The notes below the pieces were generated by a model that did not search any database, was not told the origin of the DNA, and was given only the letters and a program-made list of their open reading frames with translations. Positions 1 to 7,467 of a DNA stretch of 64,000 nucleotides are shown here, piece after piece. The stretch is from contig CAYMEO010000001.1 of assembly GCA_964389705.1 (NCBI GenBank), positions 2,591-66,590 on the forward strand. The letters run 5' to 3'. Within the stretch, counting starts at the first letter, position 1. Each line of letters begins with the position of its first letter. A program made the position numbers and the translations under genes. The DNA comes from an uncultured Spirochaetia bacterium (GTDB lineage Bacteria > Desulfobacterota_D > UBA1144 > Nemesobacterales > CSP1-2).

Positions 1-236
1 TTTCTATTTCCTCCTTTTCGTACTGAACAGGACTTACCTTAAAACTGTAGAGAGCTTCTATAAATTCTTGTCTCGAAAGACCAGCTATCTGTGCAGCCCT
101 CTCCTGAGAGATCTTACCAATTTCATACCACTTCACCGCAGCCGCTAATCTCAATTCTTTAGCAAAGCTTTCCGGGTCTTCTTTCACAGCGGAAAAAACA
201 TCTTCAGGAAGTTCAAAAGCTATTTGGGTTGACATA
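1..236 (-). CDS. UPF0175 family antitoxin-like protein (partial; start at 236, 3' end beyond window)
   Basis: Own translation of the minus strand from the ATG at 234-236: MSTQIAFELPEDVFSAVKEDPESFAKELRLAAAVKWYEIGKISQERAAQIAGLSRQEFIEALYSFKVSPVQYEKEEIE. This matches the UPF0175 pattern MST..ELPDDL...GKIS.GKAAELAG.SR.EF.E.L. The ORF runs off the window edge. Confidence 0.5.
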
Positions 237-249
237 ATTTATCCTCCTG

Positions 250-432
250 CTATTTCTTAATTATTGGCTTATATCCTTTTTCATCAAAATGACACTTTAA
301 AGCGTCTTTAATGTTTTCCCTGAGTTCCTCTAAAGTTTCACCTTCTGTGAATATAGAATGTCCAAGGGCTTTGGCGTTATATCCGCCCTCAGGGTCTTCC
401 TCAACCATAAAAATTATCTCTTCTACTTTCAT
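250..432 (-). CDS. HicB-like antitoxin (UPF0150/HicB_lk family) small protein
   Basis: 60 aa ORF. Contains EDPEGGYNAKALGHSIFTEGETLEELRENIKDAL, which matches the HicB-like signature (GGY..P.L.G..T.GET.EEA..NI.EAL). No hicA partner was seen. Confidence 0.55.
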   Translation of the reverse strand: MKVEEIIFMVEEDPEGGYNAKALGHSIFTEGETLEELRENIKDALKCHFDEKGYKPIIKK

Positions 433-435
433 ATC

Positions 436-612
436 TCAGACCTCCCTTGAAATCAAATTTGTTACCCTCTTCTTCCCACTCAGCAAATCATCCATCAATC
501 CCTTTTTCACCCTTTCCAGCTTCTCTTTTTTCTTCCTTAACAACTCCAGCCTCTTATCCACCGTGCTGAGAATCTCAGCGATTTTTTCTGTTCAGAAAGT
601 GGAGGGATCGGT
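436..612 (-). pseudogene. 3' fragment of a second hsdS (Type I RM specificity subunit) gene, frameshifted
   Basis: Minus-strand translation gives (PIPPLSEQKK)/frameshift/IAEILSTVDKRLELLRKKKEKLERVKKGLMDDLLSGKKRVTNLISREV*. This is near-identical in DNA and protein to the C-terminus of hsdS at 1936-2100. The T-run is 6 here (582-587) versus 7 in hsdS. A stop codon lies immediately upstream and there is no N-terminal part. Confidence 0.7.
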
Positions 613-637
613 CAATGCTTTCTCCAATTCATCAATC

Positions 638-856
638 CTATTTTTCTAGAGCGTTAAGTATTCTCTGACGAAGTCCTATTATCGTAAGTCCAACCACTTC
701 CATGGTTTGCGGTTCTACCCTGGCAATTATGCCTTCTCCAATATCCATTCCTTCAGCATTTCTCGGCTCTCCAACAGAGATATAGAGAACATCTGCTTCT
801 GCATCGTATTCCCAGTTTAAATCTTTTTGTTTTTCATTAATCTTCAGGGTTTCCAT
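638..856 (-). CDS. DUF2283 domain protein (antitoxin-like)
   Basis: 72 aa. Contains WEYDAEADVLYISVGEPRNAEG...EGIIARVEPQTMEVVGLTIIGL, matching the DUF2283 pattern Y.YD.E.DALYI.L......E.....GVI.D.D..G..VGIEIL. Confidence 0.6.
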   Translation of the reverse strand: METLKINEKQKDLNWEYDAEADVLYISVGEPRNAEGMDIGEGIIARVEPQTMEVVGLTIIGLRQRILNALEK

Positions 857-886
857 GTTGTATTGAATCTATCTGAACACTGACTA

Positions 887-956
887 TGTCATTCTGAGCG
901 CAGCGAAGAATCTATGGATTTAATGCTGAGATGCTTCACTTCGTTCAGCATGACAA
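887..956. repeat. REP/MITE-like imperfect palindrome, copy A (family GTCATYCTGAGC..GAAGRATC)
   Basis: Left arm TGTCATTCTGAGCGCAGCGAAGAATCT. Loop of about 15 nt. Right arm AGATGCTTCACTTCGTTCAGCATGACA, the inverted complement. Same family as the copies at 3249, 3347, 3744, 5776 and 5879. Confidence 0.7.
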
Positions 957-997
957 ACGGATAATCCTCACCCAGATTTGACATTCCTCCTTTATCA

Positions 998-1273
998 TCA
1001 AAGAGTCCCTAACGCTTTCTCCAATTCATCCTTTTTGAACTCAAGATGGTCGAGCCTCTGTAAATCCTGCCATGTTTCTTTCTCCTCAATCTCACCTTTT
1101 TTGTATCGCTCTTCAAACTCTTCAACCGAAGAAACTCCGTATTTTGTTCTTATCTTAAAAATTTCCGTCTTTATCTCTCTCAGTTTTCTTTCCAGGAAGA
1201 GCCGTAAACTTTCTCTTAGCATCTCTTCCTTTGAAAGATTTAGCTTCTTGGCTAATTCTTCTATTTCCTTCAT
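998..1273 (-). CDS. small charged coiled-coil protein with N-terminal ribbon-helix-helix-like segment (putative antitoxin or transcriptional regulator)
   Basis: 91 aa. The N-terminus MKEIEELAKKLNLSKEEMLRESLRLFLERKL fits an RHH (strand-helix-helix) pattern. The rest is a Glu/Lys-rich helical region. No confident family assignment. The 3' end (DELEKAL) is duplicated as a fragment at 612-640. Confidence 0.35.
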   Translation of the reverse strand: MKEIEELAKKLNLSKEEMLRESLRLFLERKLREIKTEIFKIRTKYGVSSVEEFEERYKKGEIEEKETWQDLQRLDHLEFKKDELEKALGTL

Positions 1274-1314
1274 CTCTAGTTGTGTATCTTACCCCTTGTT
1301 ATAGGTTAATTTTC

Positions 1315-1924
1315 TTAGGGATTCCGTATTACTTTCTCGCTTTTTTCAATATTGTTTGGATTTTCTTTATCTGTTTCCCATTTTATAGGGTTGTTAACAA
1401 TGTATTCCCTTATACGGTTTAAGGATTCTTCATTTCTTATAATATGTTCATAATAATTGCGTTGCCATACAGGCATACCAGGCGTTTTCCGAATTATGTT
1501 TATATGTTTTGCTGAATGCATTTTATACCAACCTACGATTTTGGGAATCAACATTTTTCGGCGGAATTGTTGTAATTGTAGGGGCAATTAGCTTCGCTGA
1601 AATGCCCCACCCGCTACCCGCATTTTCATGAATTGCCCCTACGGAATCCTTGATGATAATGATTCCGTGTATGTGATTTGGCATTATAACAAATTCGTCC
1701 AATTCTACATTTAGAAAATGTTCTGGTATTTCTAACCAGAATTTCCTCACGACTTCCCCAAATGGTGACAATCTAATTAGAGATATGTTGTCATCTATAA
1801 TTTCTCCTAATAAACACTCCTTATTCTTTGTGCATATTGTTATAAAATACGCTCCCGATTTGGAATAGTCGTAATCCCTTAACCTTAGAGAATGTCTATG
1901 ATATTTTTCTCTAAAATCATTCAT
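1315..1924 (-). pseudogene. REP-associated tyrosine transposase (RAYT / IS200-like Y1 transposase), frameshifted
   Basis: Two overlapping ORFs. 1523-1924 encodes the N-terminal part: HRHSLRLRDYDYSKSGAYFITICTKN...VELDEFVIMPNHIHGIIII, with the HUH motif HIH. 1315-1587 encodes the C-terminal part: RRKMLIPKIVGWYKMHSAKHINIIRKTPGMPVWQRNYYEHIIRNEESLNRIREYIVNNP, with the catalytic Tyr region. The frames are joined only across an insertion of about 38 nt at 1588-1625. The gene starts 12 nt after the hsdS stop. Confidence 0.75.
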
Positions 1925-1935
1925 AGTTGATCCCT

Positions 1936-3231
1936 TTATCCTACTTTCACTCTTATTCTCCCACTCAGCAAATCATCCATCAACCCCTTCTTCACCCTTT
2001 CAAGCTTCTCTTTCCTCTTCCTCAACAACTCCAACCTCTTATCCACCGTAGAAAGAATCTCAGCGATTTTTTTCTGTTCGGGAAGGGGAGGGAGGGGGAG
2101 TTTTATCTTTTCTACTTGTGAGCTATTTAAGGCAGGATACTGTCCTCCTACCATCATTTTATTACATTGTTCTATAACAGGTTTTGAGAAGAGAGTATAC
2201 AGTAAATAGAGAGGCAATATTTTTTCTTTGCAAGTTAGTACAGCAAATCCTGTTGAACATATCTGGTTATCATACTCTCTAGGAACAATCGCAAATGCTT
2301 TTAAATATGGACGAACCATAGACATAATAACATCGTTATAATGAATCAATCTTCTTGCTCTTGAAGGAGCTTCTTTTCCAACCATTGCTTTAGCATTTCT
2401 AACAATTCCCCGTCCATTTTCAACAGAGTCAATATCAATATAAAAGAATTGTTTGTCTGGAAATTCTCTTGTAGGGTCTCTTGATTCTTTATTAATATCA
2501 ACTACTTCTTTTAATTCCTTAATCTCCCACTCCTTCGGTATCCTTCCTATATCCGTATCCGTTTGTTTAAATTCTCTTCTCCCCTGTCTACCGTCTACCG
2601 TATTCCGTCTACCAGTCAATAGCTCCTGCATCAAGCCCTTCTTCAGCCTCTCGGTCTTTTCTATGGCTTCATCAACCTTCTCAATGGCTTTATCCACAGT
2701 AGAAAGAATCTCTGCAATTTTTTTCTGTTCGGGAAGTGGAGGGAGAGCAATAGTAATAGCTTCCAATGTACTCTTCCTTATGGATGGTGCCGCTGTCTGT
2801 CCAGCTAGTCGTTTAAGGTCGATTTTCTCTAAAAGATAATAAAACAAAAATTCTGGTTCTATTTCATTTTTTGAAATTAGTCCTGCAACATTGTTGTCAA
2901 AAGTTCCCCAAATTTTTAGAATCCTAAATTTATTTAGGTATGTGGACATTCCAATTTTAGGAAAAATAATTGTGTTTGGTGGACAAATTTTAACCTTCAA
3001 AGTTTCTAAGATCGTATCATCTATAAAATTCTCTGAGTAGCTTATGTATTTAGGAGCAAGATTTAGATCATTTACTTTGATAAAAGGATACTTTCCATCT
3101 TTGTTTCCCTGATACTTTATAGGAAATCCAAATCCACTTACTACTTCTGCTATTTCTCCCAACCTCACCACATCCCACTCCTTCGGTATCCTTCCTATTT
3201 CTGTTTGCTTGAATTCTTGTTGTGTCGTCAT
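1936..3231 (-). CDS. hsdS: Type I restriction-modification system specificity subunit HsdS
   Basis: 431 aa. Two target-recognition domains, each preceded by EFKQT.IGRIPKEW. Two copies of the conserved coiled-coil spacer LPPLPEQKKIAEILSTVDK..E......RLKKGLMQ/DLL. This is the classic duplicated HsdS architecture. Confidence 0.9.
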   Translation of the reverse strand: MTTQQEFKQTEIGRIPKEWDVVRLGEIAEVVSGFGFPIKYQGNKDGKYPFIKVNDLNLAPKYISYSENFIDDTILETLKVKICPPNTIIFPKIGMSTYLNKFRILKIWGTFDNNVAGLISKNEIEPEFLFYYLLEKIDLKRLAGQTAAPSIRKSTLEAITIALPPLPEQKKIAEILSTVDKAIEKVDEAIEKTERLKKGLMQELLTGRRNTVDGRQGRREFKQTDTDIGRIPKEWEIKELKEVVDINKESRDPTREFPDKQFFYIDIDSVENGRGIVRNAKAMVGKEAPSRARRLIHYNDVIMSMVRPYLKAFAIVPREYDNQICSTGFAVLTCKEKILPLYLLYTLFSKPVIEQCNKMMVGGQYPALNSSQVEKIKLPLPPLPEQKKIAEILSTVDKRLELLRKRKEKLERVKKGLMDDLLSGRIRVKVG

Positions 3232-3248
3232 CCTATTTTTGCCTCTTT

Positions 3249-3324
3249 TGTCATTCTGAACGAAGTGAAGAATCTAGGGTTCAATTTAATTTCACTAGAT
3301 CCTTCGCTGTCGCTCAGGATGACA
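3249..3324. repeat. REP/MITE-like palindrome, copy B
   Basis: TGTCATTCTGAACGAAGTGAAGAATCTAG ... CTAGATCCTTCGCTGTCGCTCAGGATGACA, about 28 bp inverted arms. Confidence 0.7.
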
Positions 3325-3346
3325 GATACTATAGACCAGTCCTAGA

Positions 3347-3404
3347 TGTCATTCTGAGCCGAAGGCGAAGAATCTGAGACCCTTCGCTAACGCTCAGGGT
3401 GACA
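3347..3404. repeat. REP/MITE-like palindrome, copy C
   Basis: TGTCATTCTGAGCCGAAGGCGAAGAATCTGAG / ACCCTTCGCTAACGCTCAGGGTGACA, inverted arms. Confidence 0.7.
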
Positions 3405-3438
3405 AAAACGACCTCTTTGTTCATTGCGTTTATCAAAA

Positions 3439-3723
3439 TCATCCTTCACTCAAATCCTTCCATTCTGGATTTATGGATTCAATCAAAGCTATCTTTTTCC
3501 TTCGCAACCATCCCTTGATTTGCTTCTCCCTTGCAATCGCGGCTTGGACATCATCAGTTTCCTCATAATATACTAGCTTTGTGATGTTGTATTTTTTAGT
3601 GAAGCCATCAATCATTTTGTTTTTATGTTCATAGACGCGTCTCATTAGGTCGTTTGTCACACCTGTATATAATGTCTTTGAACGGTTGGTCATTATGTAA
3701 ACATAATATCGGTTCATTTGCAC
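3439..3723 (-). CDS. GIY-YIG nuclease family protein (YhbQ/UPF0213-like small standalone nuclease domain)
   Basis: 94 aa. Motif YVYIMTNRSKTLYTGVTNDLMRRVYEHKN matches GIY-(10-11)-YTG..R...H.. Flanked on both sides by the REP-like palindromes. Confidence 0.85.
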   Translation of the reverse strand: MQMNRYYVYIMTNRSKTLYTGVTNDLMRRVYEHKNKMIDGFTKKYNITKLVYYEETDDVQAAIAREKQIKGWLRRKKIALIESINPEWKDLSEG

Positions 3724-3743
3724 AATTGCCTTAGTTGGCTATG

Positions 3744-3831
3744 TGTCATTCTGAGCCGAAGCGTAGCGAAGGCGAAGAATCCCGGAGTTTGAGATGCTTC
3801 GCTAGATCCTTCGCTGTTGCTCAGGATGACA
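3744..3831. repeat. REP/MITE-like palindrome, copy D
   Basis: TGTCATTCTGAGCCGAAGCGTAGCGAAGGCGAAGAATCCCGGAG / ...GATCCTTCGCTGTTGCTCAGGATGACA. Confidence 0.7.
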
Positions 3832-3852
3832 GCATTGATTAATAAAATTAAC

Positions 3853-5610
3853 TCACAAGCCGTTACTTTCCTTTAGCTCCCTAAGATACCCATCAATCCT
3901 TCTTTCAATCTCCTGAAGCTCCTCCTCCAATGCACGGATTTCCTTCCACTCTTCCTCAACATTTATCTCTTCGCTTTCTTCCTCAGGAAACACATAAAGC
4001 GTAACATTCAGGTTATAGTCATTCTCTTTTATCTTTTCCAAATCAACAGCCTTAGAAAACCCATCTGAATCTTTGAATTCCCTATAAGCCTCAACTATTT
4101 TCTCTATATTCTCATCTCCCAGTTGGTTGAGTTTCCTTACTTCAGGGTGCTGTTTGAATTCCCTACTTGCGTTTATGAATAGTATTTTCCCTCTTCTTTC
4201 CTCCGGCTTGTTTTTATTGAGGATTATCACGGCCCCAGGCGCTCCTGTGTTATAGAAGAGCTTTTCGGGAAGGAGAATGACGGATTCTATCAAATCGGAA
4301 TTTACTACCCCTGTTCTTATTACCTTTTCCTTTCCTCCCCTAAAAAGGCAACCGTTGTCTATTACAACTCCAACCCTTCCCGTCTTGTCATACGCAGAAG
4401 CCAGCATGTGCTCTATCCATGCCCAGTCTGCGGACTGCTTGGGAGGAAACCCGAACTTAAATCTCTCCTTCCAGAACTCCCCTCGCTTCAGGATTTCCTC
4501 ATCGTATCCGTCTTGATTCCACGGCGGATTGGCTATCACGATATCGAATCTCTTTATTCTTTCACCTTCTTTAAACTTGGGATAAAGCAATGTGTCTCCA
4601 AGTGTAAGCTGAGCGTTTCTTATATCATGTATGTAGAGATTCATTTTAGATAGGGCAAGTGTCTTATGATTGGCTTCTTGTCCAAAGAGAAAGAGCCTAT
4701 CCGCTTCGCCTTTTCCGTGTTCATTCTCAACATGCTGGTATGAGGTTATGAGCATACCTCCAGAGCCACACGCCGGGTCATAAACGCCTTCACCGGGCTT
4801 TGGATTGAGTATTTCAACAATGAGTTTTATAACCTCTCGCGGGGTGTATACCTCTCCCTCTTTAGCCTTCTGAGGGGCAAAATATCTCAAAATCCATTCG
4901 TAGGCATCTCCAAGGATGTCTGGGGATACATGATTAAGAGGCTTGGCGCTGAAGAGTTCAACAAGCTGCCTTAATATCTCCGCGTTTTCCCTATTTGTGG
5001 TGAATTGAACAAAGTCCACATTTTCAAATACGTCCTTGAGTTCCGGGTTTCTCTCCGCGAGGGTCTTCATCGCCTTTGAGAAGTTTTCAGGCAACCTTGC
5101 GGGCTCTTTTCTTATTTCTTTCCACAGGAATCCTTCGGGAATGTCGAAGTCATGGTAAATCGAATTCTTGGCTTCTTCTCTTGCCTCTTTGTCACTTAGC
5201 CCATCCGAAAGGGCTTCGTTATAAGCCCCTTCAAACTCCATTTCCCACTTATCGCTTATTCTCTTATAGAAGAGGAGAACGAGTATGAAGCTGTAATCAA
5301 CCCTTGTCCTTATGAGATCGGCTGCCCCTTTTAGAAGCGATTCAAGGTCGCTCCTTGTTAATTGATTTTTATCTATTGATAACCTCTCGGATATTATTTT
5401 CACTCTGTTTTCCAGCCGGTATATCCTCTTTCTAGCATCCTCGGAATCAAACTCCACTTTTAACAATTTCTGCTTTCTTAGCTCGGAGAGGAAAACATTT
5501 ATCTGATCTTCACTATCCTGCATCTTCTCTTTAAGAACCTTGGCGGCGTCTTCAAAACGGAAATCATTGTCATGGTGCTCATCCCCACAGAATCTTATAT
5601 CTCTTCTCAA
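3853..5610 (-). CDS. hsdM: Type I restriction-modification system DNA methyltransferase subunit HsdM (N6-adenine)
   Basis: 585 aa. HsdM N-terminal domain. SAM motif I is DPACGSGGML. Motif IV is NPPW (FDIVIANPPWNQ). Confidence 0.9.
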   Translation of the reverse strand: MRRDIRFCGDEHHDNDFRFEDAAKVLKEKMQDSEDQINVFLSELRKQKLLKVEFDSEDARKRIYRLENRVKIISERLSIDKNQLTRSDLESLLKGAADLIRTRVDYSFILVLLFYKRISDKWEMEFEGAYNEALSDGLSDKEAREEAKNSIYHDFDIPEGFLWKEIRKEPARLPENFSKAMKTLAERNPELKDVFENVDFVQFTTNRENAEILRQLVELFSAKPLNHVSPDILGDAYEWILRYFAPQKAKEGEVYTPREVIKLIVEILNPKPGEGVYDPACGSGGMLITSYQHVENEHGKGEADRLFLFGQEANHKTLALSKMNLYIHDIRNAQLTLGDTLLYPKFKEGERIKRFDIVIANPPWNQDGYDEEILKRGEFWKERFKFGFPPKQSADWAWIEHMLASAYDKTGRVGVVIDNGCLFRGGKEKVIRTGVVNSDLIESVILLPEKLFYNTGAPGAVIILNKNKPEERRGKILFINASREFKQHPEVRKLNQLGDENIEKIVEAYREFKDSDGFSKAVDLEKIKENDYNLNVTLYVFPEEESEEINVEEEWKEIRALEEELQEIERRIDGYLRELKESNGL

Positions 5611-5775
5611 GCCAGTTGGGTATCATAAGCTTCCTCCCTCGATTATATAAGCTTTTAAACAATTACTTATACTATAAGCAGAAAGGATAATTATCAAGAG
5701 AAGGTAGAAAAATCGCAGTCAAAAGTAGAAGAAAGGATTAGAAATGACATCTAGAGCTGATATTATAATAGGGTC

Positions 5776-5845
5776 TGTCATCCTGAGCGGTAGCGAAGGA
5801 TCTACCTCTTCTGGCTTCTTTGTCGCTTCGCTCCTCAGAATGACA
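5776..5845. repeat. REP/MITE-like palindrome, copy E
   Basis: TGTCATCCTGAGCGGTAGCGAAGGATCTACC ... TGTCGCTTCGCTCCTCAGAATGACA. Confidence 0.65.
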
Positions 5846-5878
5846 TTTATGGGTGTATTGGAGTTGCTCCCGGTATTT

Positions 5879-5990
5879 GTCACTCTGAGCACATTCATTA
5901 TTATTCAGTGTAAACTCCGCGAAGAATCTCGGAGTGCTAGACCCTTCGCGGAGTTTACACTGAATAAGGCACGCCCTGAGTGCAACCGAA
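5879..5990. repeat. REP/MITE-like element, copy F, with nested perfect 19 bp inverted repeat
   Basis: GTCACTCTGAGC...CAGTGTAAACTCCGCGAAG AATCTCGGAGTGCTAGACC CTTCGCGGAGTTTACACTG...GCCCTGAGTGCAAC. Confidence 0.65.
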
Positions 5991-6066
5991 GGGTGAATGT
6001 GTTTGGAATGATAACACTAAATGCAAAGTTTGACTCATCTTCAACTCTAATTTAACCTAAACCCGC

Positions 6067-7467
6067 ATGAGTGTGAGAACGAGATTTGCTCCAAGCCCAA
6101 CGGGGGCGCTCCATATAGGCGGGGCAAGGACTGCGATCTTTAACTGGCTTTTTGCAAGGCACTATGGCGGAAAATTTATTCTCCGAATTGAAGACACAGA
6201 TCGTGCCCGCTCTACCGAAGAATCTGTATCTGAGATATTAGATGGCATGACATGGCTCGGACTCAATTGGGATGAGGGTCCGTTCAGGCAGTCCGATAGA
6301 CTCTCTATTTACCAGGAATATGCCGAAAGGCTCCTTCAGTCTGGAAAGGCATACAGATGCTATTGCACGCCAGATGAGCTTGATAGGAGAAGGAAAGAGG
6401 CGGAAAAACAGGGAAGGATCTACAGATACGAGGGCACATGCAGAAGTCTGAAATCCAATCCCCTAGATAAGCCCTTTGCTATCCGTCTTATGACTCCTGA
6501 GGTGGGGACCATTGAGGTTGATGATTTAATTAGGGGAATTATCCATTTTGATGCCAAAGAGATTGACGATTTTGTTATTCAAAAGACAGATGGGTTTCCG
6601 ACATATAACTTTGCCGTAGTAATTGATGATGCCACTATGGATATAACCCACGTCATACGCGGGGACGACCATATTGCAAACACCCCAAAACAGATCCTCA
6701 TATATGAGGCGTTATCTCAAGGGATTCCCAAATTCGCTCATGTCTCAATGATTCTTGGCTCTGATAAGGCAAGACTAAGCAAGAGACACGGCGCTACCTC
6801 GGTCATTGCATATAGGGAGATGGGCTATCTTCCGGAGGCGGTTGTAAACTATCTTGCCCGTCTCGGCTGGTCTTATGGGGATCAAGAGATCTTTTCAAAA
6901 GAAGAGTTGATTGAGAAATTCACGCTTGAGAATGTGGGGAAATCTGCTGCCGTTTTTAATCCTGAAAAACTCTTATGGCTAAACGGTTGGTATATAAGAA
7001 ACAAACCGGCTGAGGAGATTGCGAGGCTTCTGATTCCGTTCCTACAAAAGAAGGGATTTCAGGTTGCTTTCGATGAGAGGCTTATAAAGATCGTAAGTGT
7101 ACTTCGAGAAAGGGCAAAGACACTCCTAGAGCTCGCTGACTCTGCGCAATATTTCTTCACCGATGAAATCAAGTATGAAGAGGTGGCTCGAAAGAAGTTT
7201 CTTACATCCGATGCGCTTCCGATTCTTGAAGAACTCATAAATAGGCTCTCTTCCCTTCATGATTTTACGGCCCCAGAGCTGCAAAGGATATTTGGAGAAA
7301 TTACGGAGAGGAGGGGAATAAAGCTCATTCAAATCGCCCAGCCAACAAGGGTTGCTCTTACCGGAGGAACGGTAAGCCCTGGAATCTTCGAGGTAATGGA
7401 GATTCTAGGAAAGGATAGGGTGATAGAGAGATTAAAAAGGGCAGTCTCCTATATTTCAAAAAATTAA
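6067..7467 (+). CDS. gltX: glutamyl-tRNA synthetase
   Basis: 466 aa. RFAPSPTGALHIGGARTA (HIGH motif). ...RLSKRHGA (KMSKS-like motif). Typical GltX length. Confidence 0.95.
   Translation: MSVRTRFAPSPTGALHIGGARTAIFNWLFARHYGGKFILRIEDTDRARSTEESVSEILDGMTWLGLNWDEGPFRQSDRLSIYQEYAERLLQSGKAYRCYCTPDELDRRRKEAEKQGRIYRYEGTCRSLKSNPLDKPFAIRLMTPEVGTIEVDDLIRGIIHFDAKEIDDFVIQKTDGFPTYNFAVVIDDATMDITHVIRGDDHIANTPKQILIYEALSQGIPKFAHVSMILGSDKARLSKRHGATSVIAYREMGYLPEAVVNYLARLGWSYGDQEIFSKEELIEKFTLENVGKSAAVFNPEKLLWLNGWYIRNKPAEEIARLLIPFLQKKGFQVAFDERLIKIVSVLRERAKTLLELADSAQYFFTDEIKYEEVARKKFLTSDALPILEELINRLSSLHDFTAPELQRIFGEITERRGIKLIQIAQPTRVALTGGTVSPGIFEVMEILGKDRVIERLKRAVSYISKN

Follow-up and report, generated by a model that had tools for sequence, protein, structure and literature searches.

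Restriction-linked genes embedded in Type I restriction operons are known from prr of E. coli (hsdM-hsdS-prrC-hsdR) and from the rlo genes of Campylobacter jejuni. Repetitive extragenic palindromes (REPs) and REP-associated Y1 HUH transposases (RAYTs) reportedly form another kind of system, described by Nunvar in 2010, Bertels and Rainey in 2011, and Ton-Hoang in 2012. Chenal et al. (2025, PMC11893778) describe the Ssn proteins, single-domain GIY-YIG nucleases cutting single-stranded DNA beside hairpin repeats. The present study analyzes positions 1-6066, an island beside gltX, in a 64-kb stretch of DNA (the whole of which is called the window) from a contig of an uncultured Candidatus Dadabacteria bacterium. 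All of its components are of known kinds, i.e. a Type I system that harbours restriction-linked genes, a nuclease and hairpin repeats forming an Ssn/SRM module, a dead RAYT, and toxin-antitoxin cassettes. Patterns detected make it highly probable that the island makes up those two-thirds of a complete Type I operon that lie nearest the promoter, with gaps colonised by cassettes and with scars left by the history proposed below. As in prr and rlo, hsdM, hsdS, and hsdR lie on one strand with unrelated small genes between them, and what distinguishes the hsdS alleles is the swapping of target-recognition domains (TRDs) at conserved repeats; the differences are that the guests here are an Ssn-type GIY-YIG gene, a RAYT, and toxin-antitoxin-like cassettes, with no anticodon nuclease, and that the operon lies beside gltX in one Dadabacteria sublineage.

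The gene inventory of the original prediction, made from the window alone, held up: all listed genes were present on the minus strand at about their predicted places, in the order hsdM, GIY-YIG, hsdS, RAYT (in two frames), RHH, DUF2283, an hsdS 3′ remnant, a 60-amino-acid (aa) gene, and UPF0175, with gltX starting at 6067 and the RAYT beginning 12 nt past the end of hsdS. The contrast drawn between the first 6 kb and the rest of the window was likewise borne out, since GC content was 39.7% in 1-6066 and 44.1% in the remainder, below that of every 6-kb stretch elsewhere in the window (lowest there 40.9%), and all repeat units lay inside the island. The neighbour of the operon and its two full-length genes in the window are these:

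6067-7467, plus strand: gltX, the conserved chromosomal neighbour and right-hand edge of the island
3853-5610, minus strand: hsdM, intact, 585 aa (PF12161 and PF02384, E = 5e-115)
1936-3231, minus strand: hsdS, intact, 431 aa, two TRDs (PF01420 twice, E = 4e-51)

The original prediction also stated that no hsdR was present, and that hsdM and hsdS were an orphan pair able only to methylate unless R was encoded elsewhere or another nuclease was recruited. The first statement is true only within the window, and the orphan reading is refuted by the sequence beyond its edge. The source contig (ERZ1669417 NODE_25, a metagenome contig of 81,027 bp), found by exact-protein look-up, runs 2,590 nt beyond window position 1 and carries there, on the same strand, the end of UPF0175, an overlapping DUF3368/PIN gene, and then hsdR, which starts 496 nt outside position 1 and overlaps the PIN gene by 14 nt; an hsdR just outside the window is what had been named beforehand as evidence against an orphan pair. 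This hsdR is an open frame of 698 codons, cut by the contig end, with domains PF04313 (N-terminal nuclease), PF18766 (SWI2/SNF2 ATPase), and PF22679 (T1R domain 3). Its match to TIGR00348 spans positions 2-674 of the 674 in the profile and scores 677 bits, where the cut-off is 285; it also matched PADLOC REase_I with E = 6e-111, and its motifs PD-(D/E)XK (D..ECK), GSGKT, DEGH, and QAIARTNR are intact. HsdR homologues have about 1000 aa (the closest, 92% identical, has 1003); the visible protein ends at residue 698 of these, with the C-terminal ~300 aa past the contig end.

HsdM has the motifs DPACGSGG and NPPW in its translation and matched PADLOC MTase_I (E = 5e-110), with a score under the 242.75-bit cut-off of the TIGR00497 equivalog (E = 3e-61, 207.6 bits), and HsdS matched PADLOC Specificity_I over its full length (residues 4-429, E = 5e-70). 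All three genes, hsdR as far as its visible 698 codons, are uninterrupted and retain catalytic motifs. Compared with sister loci, dN/dS was 0.09-0.13 for hsdM and 0.39 for the N-terminal part of hsdR, where there were few changes. Ahead of its HsdM_N domain HsdM carries an N-terminal extension of ~88 aa (window 5347-5610), kept in sister genes (590-595 aa). Residues 31-70 of the extension had a weak winged-helix-like match to MsvR (E = 2e-4), and the extension could be a fused regulator domain.

The operon would be transcribed away from gltX in the order hsdM, GIY-YIG module, hsdS, cargo, and hsdR. Going by what is known of the family, an M2S1 complex would methylate a bipartite site set by the two TRDs of HsdS and, together with HsdR, would translocate along and cut unmodified DNA. 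A first slot, the hsdM-hsdS gap, would be held by an Ssn-type module consisting of the 92-aa GIY-YIG nuclease and its own TGTC-tagged hairpins, and a second, the hsdS-hsdR gap, by interchangeable toxin-antitoxin-like cargo.

Comparison with relatives suggests acquisition followed by inheritance. Of the 23 closest species representatives in GTDB that were checked (L002-L024), not one has the island or any restriction system beside gltX: the closest of them has phosphoglucomutase and xseA at the gltX side, and most others have a two-gene pair there, one gene of which we take, judging the sequence by eye, to be MlaE-type membrane permease-like. GltX itself has 88% aa identity to GltX of Ca. Dadabacteria ERB_12_1. 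Yet the gene order is inherited in sister contigs, which were gathered from metagenomes through a 99% identical GIY-YIG protein. At least eight of these (L087-L094) read gltX, hsdM (590 aa), GIY-YIG, hsdS (413 aa), a 72-aa gene, hicA, and hsdR (1003 aa), and the L087 type matches the window with 93% DNA identity from gltX to where hsdS begins (6736-3173), rising to 98.7% in hsdR. A second variant reads gltX, hsdM, GIY-YIG, a 70-aa gene, and a Schlafen/AlbA_2 ATPase, and a third ahpC, hsdM, and GIY-YIG. Recurrence beside gltX in sister contigs indicates that the GIY-YIG-bearing operon is an inherited feature of the sublineage, and the GIY-YIG gene is accordingly an inherited resident rather than a fresh scar. 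Conserved gene order among relatives, which the original prediction had set against its own view of the island, was thus largely found. Its further proposal of a defence-island hotspot under active rearrangement stands in part: the data support horizontally acquired, variable defence DNA, as judged from composition and distribution, but not active rearrangement, the visible changes being old and shared.

Variation among these loci is found in the second gap, where each variant has different toxin-antitoxin cargo, and in hsdS, the TRDs of which are reshuffled among variants. TRD1 of the window hsdS is unique to the window, TRD2 is an 86% match to TRD1 of L087, and from TRD2 onward the gene is 92% identical to that of a further locus, L084, on a contig from a different sample; this mixing is the domain reassortment known for hsdS. 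Other guests were seen in the hsdM-hsdS gap, namely a Schlafen/AlbA_2 gene with HATPase_c_4 (447 aa) at 3497-4840 of L096 and a DUF3644 gene (359 aa) at 337-1416 of L084.

The guest of the first gap is best compared with the Ssn family. There the repeats (NTS, CGTCATTCCCGCGMAVGCGGGAATCYRG, in Neisseria; generally SRM) flank their own nuclease gene, in the arrangement NTS-ssnA-NTS, they normally cluster near ssn throughout the family, and transformation of Neisseria is restricted for NTS-flanked DNA (PMC11893778). CGTC/TGTC-tagged REPs had no dedicated enzyme known in 2013 (Di Nocera et al., PMC3733652). The gene and the hairpins of the island are these:

3439-3717, minus strand: GIY-YIG nuclease gene, 92 aa, single domain (PF01541, E = 2.5e-15, the sole domain)
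887-957: hairpin 1, two inverted TGTC-tagged units (GTCATTCTGAGCG..GAAGAATC), z = -2.5
3248-3330: hairpin 2, inverted pair of TGTC-tagged units, z = -3.8
3347-3405: hairpin 3, inverted pair of TGTC-tagged units, 34 nt past the GIY-YIG stop, z = -4.7
3744-3832: hairpin 4, inverted pair of TGTC-tagged units in the gap between hsdM and GIY-YIG, z = -4.7
5776-5850: hairpin 5, inverted pair of TGTC-tagged units in the divergent hsdM-gltX spacer, z = -2.3
5878-6000: hairpin 6, composite of one TGTC-tagged unit and a 24-bp perfect inner stem, -36 kcal/mol, z = -8.6

With 92 aa and a single domain the protein is of Ssn size (single domain, <150 aa), and among solved structures the UPF0213 protein 1zg2 comes nearest to it. 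Over 85 aa the GIY-YIG protein shares 49% identity with an open reading frame (ORF) of N. gonorrhoeae (BLASTP E = 5e-30; tblastn E = 5e-20, below the E < 1e-10 of the Ssn paper) that sits among 9 exact NTS repeats, 6 on one side and 3 on the other. The record of that ORF carries no such annotation, and from the NTS layout it is inferred to be the ssnA orthologue. dN/dS of the window gene was 0.06-0.09 against sister loci. Nothing was located in the literature searched on GIY-YIG proteins with UPF0213/COG2827.

The REP-like elements announced by the original prediction are real. The core GTCATTCTGAGCG (up to 2 mismatches) has 11 copies in the 64 kb against 1.1 expected, a count reached in none of 100 shuffles, and all 11 lie within 888-5891, at gene boundaries, pairing into the six hairpins; the TGTC-tagged unit has the form TGTCATTCTGAGCG..GAAGAATC. 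Hairpins 2, 3, and 4 bracket the GIY-YIG gene on both sides, and hairpin 6 is kept in L087 and L084. Their assignment is what changes, as they would belong not to the RAYT but to the GIY-YIG gene. The protein has at least 120 distinct close relatives. A further 80 loci with 67-87% identity were taken for a flank survey, 73 of them with enough flank. In these 73 the 250 nt upstream of the gene contained GTCATTC in 67% of cases and the 250 nt downstream in 68%, compared with a background of 3.1% for windows of 250 nt lying over 800 nt from the gene. TGTC hairpins as the REPs of the RAYT were considered and rejected, because they track the GIY-YIG gene and the RAYT palindrome is GTAG-tagged.

Likeness to Ssn/NTS extends to a protein of about 92-94 aa, to oriented repeats on both sides that start (C/T)GTCATTC, end GAATC, and cluster at the gene, and to repeat class, in that NTS are CGTC-tagged REPs (PMC3733652) and the window repeats appear to fit the CGTC/TGTC-tagged class. 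There are also differences: the stem here is TGAGCG..CGAAG as opposed to CCCGCG..CGCGGG, the stable hairpin is made of two inverted units 10-40 nt apart, and the module is fixed in a restriction operon. The published SRM pattern, HGTCWYN(0-2)YYVSBRHN(0-5)WNVSBRGN(0-2)RNCYNB, had 0 matches in the window, although the NTS control matched; homology and flank statistics were therefore used as the basis of the assignment. The window hairpins would then be a divergent SRM variant, in which the GTCATTC...GAATC frame is kept and the inner stem is different and weaker. We conclude that the GIY-YIG gene and hairpins probably form an Ssn/SRM-type module that entered the hsdM-hsdS spacer once. After this single entry into the hsdM lineage the module would have been co-inherited under purifying selection, and the most likely role of the nuclease, if SsnA and NTS of Neisseria are a guide, is to bind and cut its hairpins in single-stranded DNA.

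Several further observations concern this family of genes and hairpins. On plasmid p1 of Planktothrix agardhii (L184; NZ_LR882964, 16347-21616) an 83% identical GIY-YIG gene lies between a Type IIL MmeI gene and DISARM drmA, with arrays of the same TGTCATTCTGAG hairpins on either side, which shows cross-phylum spread of the Ssn-type module into another defence locus. L103 has the order hsdS-RHH-GIY, its RHH being a 90% identical copy of the window RHH. Between two Dadabacteria genomes, L003 (1030-1112) and L004 (~540), the 3′ end of the GIY-YIG gene differs by a ~150-nt insertion containing a GTCATTGCGAGG...CTCGCAATGAC hairpin, a presence/absence polymorphism of a related hairpin element. An ORF of 103 aa called on the source contig at 5744-6055 (plus strand) consists nearly wholly of hairpins 5 and 6 and is therefore probably not a gene. 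Rfam over 1-7000 gave no known RNA family, only sub-threshold miRNA-like matches at hairpin 6.

An alternative explanation could be a functional coupling between the restriction locus and the Ssn-type nuclease with its hairpins, e.g. by gating single-strand recombination such that hsd genes and cargo are exchanged or protected in hairpin-bounded units. This would account for the position of all 11 repeat units of the 64 kb within the island and at gene boundaries, for the point at which L096 and L095 cease to be homologous to the window, within hairpin 2 at ~3296, and for the settings of the gene in the Planktothrix plasmid and in L103, and restriction of NTS-flanked DNA during transformation in Neisseria is consistent with it. 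It would not account for the observation that most GIY-YIG homologues are away from restriction genes: in 49 homologous loci with at least 1.5 kb of flank a Type I gene was nearby in one and hsdM in none, and the GIY-YIG gene as a general partner of restriction systems was rejected on this count of 1/49. Moreover the chief hsdS breakpoints, described below, are in conserved regions and not in hairpins, and repeats cluster around ssn genes as a matter of course. We therefore regard coupling as unlikely.

The second gap holds the following features apart from the RAYT, which is treated after them:

998-1273, minus strand: RHH (CopG-type), 91 aa (PF01402, 24.3 bits, cut-off 20.5)
638-856, minus strand: DUF2283, antitoxin-like, 72 aa (PF10049, 27.4 bits, cut-off 23)
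~462-610, minus strand: hsdS 3′ remnant, C-terminal conserved region PPLSEQKK/IAEILSTVDKRLELL..., no TRD
250-432, minus strand: truncated orphan hicB-like antitoxin gene, 60 aa
1-235, minus strand: UPF0175 antitoxin gene, first 78 codons in the window, last 6 codons and stop outside

RHH has a homologue of 95 aa in L084, where DUF2283 is also conserved, and neither has a recognisable partner toxin at the locus. The 60-aa protein had no Pfam match of its own, but its first 50 aa are 98% identical to the 72-aa protein of L087. That protein has a faint PF15919 match, and its gene overlaps the one next downstream, which encodes a HicA toxin (PF07927, E = 5e-15). As compared with HicAB, then, the 60-aa gene is the 5′ part of hicB; hicA was not found in the window and survives in sister loci. 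UPF0175 (L001 12997-13251; PF03683, E = 3.5e-25) and the DUF3368 PIN-like toxin gene (PF11848, E = 2.6e-14) match the PADLOC candidate system PDC-S70 (PIN protein E = 4e-51), and resemble known UPF0175-DUF3368 pairs in that the antitoxin gene overlaps the PIN-like toxin gene.

Two patchworks of identity point to how the second gap was filled. L084 has the order DUF3644, hsdS, intact RAYT, RHH, DUF2283, hsdS remnant, bAvd, hicB-like, MNT, hsdR, and YgjP, and window 2745-474, from the central conserved region of hsdS through TRD2, RAYT, RHH, and DUF2283 to the remnant, is 92% identical to it, as opposed to 78% in hsdR. Window 607-283, i.e. the remnant and the 60-aa gene, is 94% identical to the hsdS end and 72-aa gene of L087. 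The remnant, frameshifted by a 1-nt deletion, is 90% identical to 1959-2072 in the live gene and 94% identical to the live hsdS 3′ end of L087, to which the live end in the window is only 88% identical; the remnant is therefore the original hsdS end. The chief breakpoints lie within hsdS conserved regions. Starting from an L087-like ancestor with hsdS-hicB-hicA-hsdR, a block made of the hsdS central region, TRD2, its own 3′ end, RAYT, RHH, and DUF2283 may have come in by homologous recombination via the hsdS conserved regions, stranding the old hsdS 3′ end, and later UPF0175-PIN may have replaced hicA and the tail of hicB directly upstream of hsdR. The hsdS remnant and truncated hicB would be, on this sequence pattern, marks of one old recombination, and inactivation of the RAYT would be placed later than entry of the block.

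Two lines describe the RAYT:

1315-1924, minus strand: RAYT pseudogene, in two frames
1588-1626, minus strand: 37-nt insertion (position uncertain by 2 nt) in the middle of the internal 28-nt palindrome of the RAYT

Its HUH (NHIHGII) and Tyr (WQRNYYEH) motifs are each intact but now in separate frames, and removing the 37 nt restores a 190-aa ORF that is 88% identical to the intact L084 protein (194-aa P0001). The restored ORF has thousands of homologues with full-length alignment, several of them named RayT by their sources, and reached E = 9e-16 and 58 bits with NF047646 (REP_Tyr_transpos), under the 80-bit cut-off. At the insertion site intact homologues read GTAGGGGCAATTCATGAATTGCCCCTAC, which in the window is split into arms at 1578-1589 and 1627-1642. 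The disrupted allele recurs in an independent sequencing run, DRR163687, and is therefore no assembly error. A search of the window and of the ~200 loci compared found no second copy of the insert. Programmed frameshifting or translational bypass over the insert was rejected, because neither a stop codon nor take-off and landing codons that match are present and because the 37 nt are missing from intact homologues.

The likeness to RAYT/REP systems lies in the Y1 HUH fold, the HUH and Tyr motifs, and an associated GTAG-tagged palindrome; the difference is that the window copy is a pseudogene without flanking REPs and that the palindrome is within the ORF. No GTAG-type palindrome was found in the flanks, the single copy in the 64 kb being the one inside the gene. 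The perfect 28-nt GTAG-tagged palindrome GTAGGGGCAATTCATGAATTGCCCCTAC encodes the invariant VGAIHELPL of the RAYT family, and although five RAYT genes share 63-70% DNA identity overall, 25-28 of the 28 palindrome nucleotides are kept. In one gene two palindrome changes are compensatory, at the price of a Leu-to-Ser substitution. The 28-mer is also free-standing, with 28 copies on 19 viral-catalogue contigs (L185-L203) that have no RAYT gene, seven of them on one contig, and in two loci it adjoins RAYT genes. Apart from these contigs the palindrome was recorded at window 1578-1642, L084 2930, L085 3292, L204 1783 and 2321, L205 234 and 1777, and L206 1768. No mention of the VGAIHELPL palindrome inside RAYT genes was found in the literature searched. 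At 1100 and 7723 of L005, a related Dadabacteria genome, there are intergenic GTAG-type palindromes, GTAGGGGCAC(G/A)GCATGC(C/T)GTGCCCCTAC, the ends of which match the RAYT-internal palindrome while the cores differ.

As to position, a RAYT lies directly after hsdS in both the window (1315-1924) and L084 (2648-3232), and Thermoflavifilum thermophilum, a Bacteroidota isolate (L204; FPCJ01000001, 2299470-2303027), has the order hsdM-RAYT-RAYT-x-x-hsdS. The family was found within a Type I operon in 2 of 5 independent contexts, in two unrelated phyla, too few for an association; a search for more contexts yielded 1 locus from a viral-contig scan and 1 match from a plasmid search. A joint proposal, which we hold to be doubtful, is that (a) the Ssn nuclease and hairpins are a single-strand "gatekeeper" of hsd and cargo exchange or protection and (b) the RAYT-internal REP is a master copy or an autoregulatory site. 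If (b) were true, the window would be a natural knock-out by insertion at the hairpin tip.

Besides the missing SRM match, several points weigh against the reading proposed here. The last ~300 codons of hsdR are off the contig and may be truncated in this genome, an exact full-length hsdR copy of this genome was searched for and none was found, and sister assembly L088 has split hsdS and hsdR. There are ~620 nt and three hairpins between hsdM and hsdS and ~2.4 kb between hsdS and hsdR, gaps across which co-expression of the three genes is assumed, and promoter and terminator scans gave counts equal to those of shuffles, no better than chance. It could be argued that the locus is decaying, the Type I system being no longer functional and the island a collection of defunct mobile elements and unpaired antitoxins, as the frameshifts of the RAYT and hsdS remnant, the loss of hicA and of part of hicB, the lack of partner toxins for RHH and DUF2283, the unseen 3′ end of hsdR, and the split genes of L088 would suggest. 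Decay is, however, improbable given uninterrupted hsdM, hsdS, and visible hsdR with catalytic motifs, dN/dS of no more than 0.13 in hsdM and 0.09 in the GIY-YIG gene, and retention of the full operon in many sister contigs. Least tenable is an orphan hsdM-hsdS that only methylates or uses the adjoining GIY-YIG as a substitute nuclease, which the window itself might suggest with its lack of hsdR, its nuclease-fold gene between hsdM and hsdS, and an hsdM-GIY-YIG linkage repeated in three locus types, but which is scarcely credible beside an hsdR with intact motifs on the same contig and strand, the near absence of Type I genes around homologous GIY-YIG loci, and the grouping of the protein with hairpin-associated Ssn nucleases.

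The main value of recognising a complete Type I operon here is corrective, in that a window edge created a false "orphan methylase" call. Beyond that, the locus illustrates Type I operons as landing pads, with two gaps holding interchangeable cargo, and the conserved-region remnant of hsdS marks the entry point of TRD2 and the cargo block. The pairing of Ssn nuclease and hairpins is extended to Candidatus Dadabacteria in a divergent repeat variant, which would be useful if Ssn enzymes are mined as tools for single-stranded DNA. Finally, the 28-nt REP palindrome inside RAYT genes across phyla, if confirmed on whole genomes, would bear on the seeding and upkeep of REP populations.

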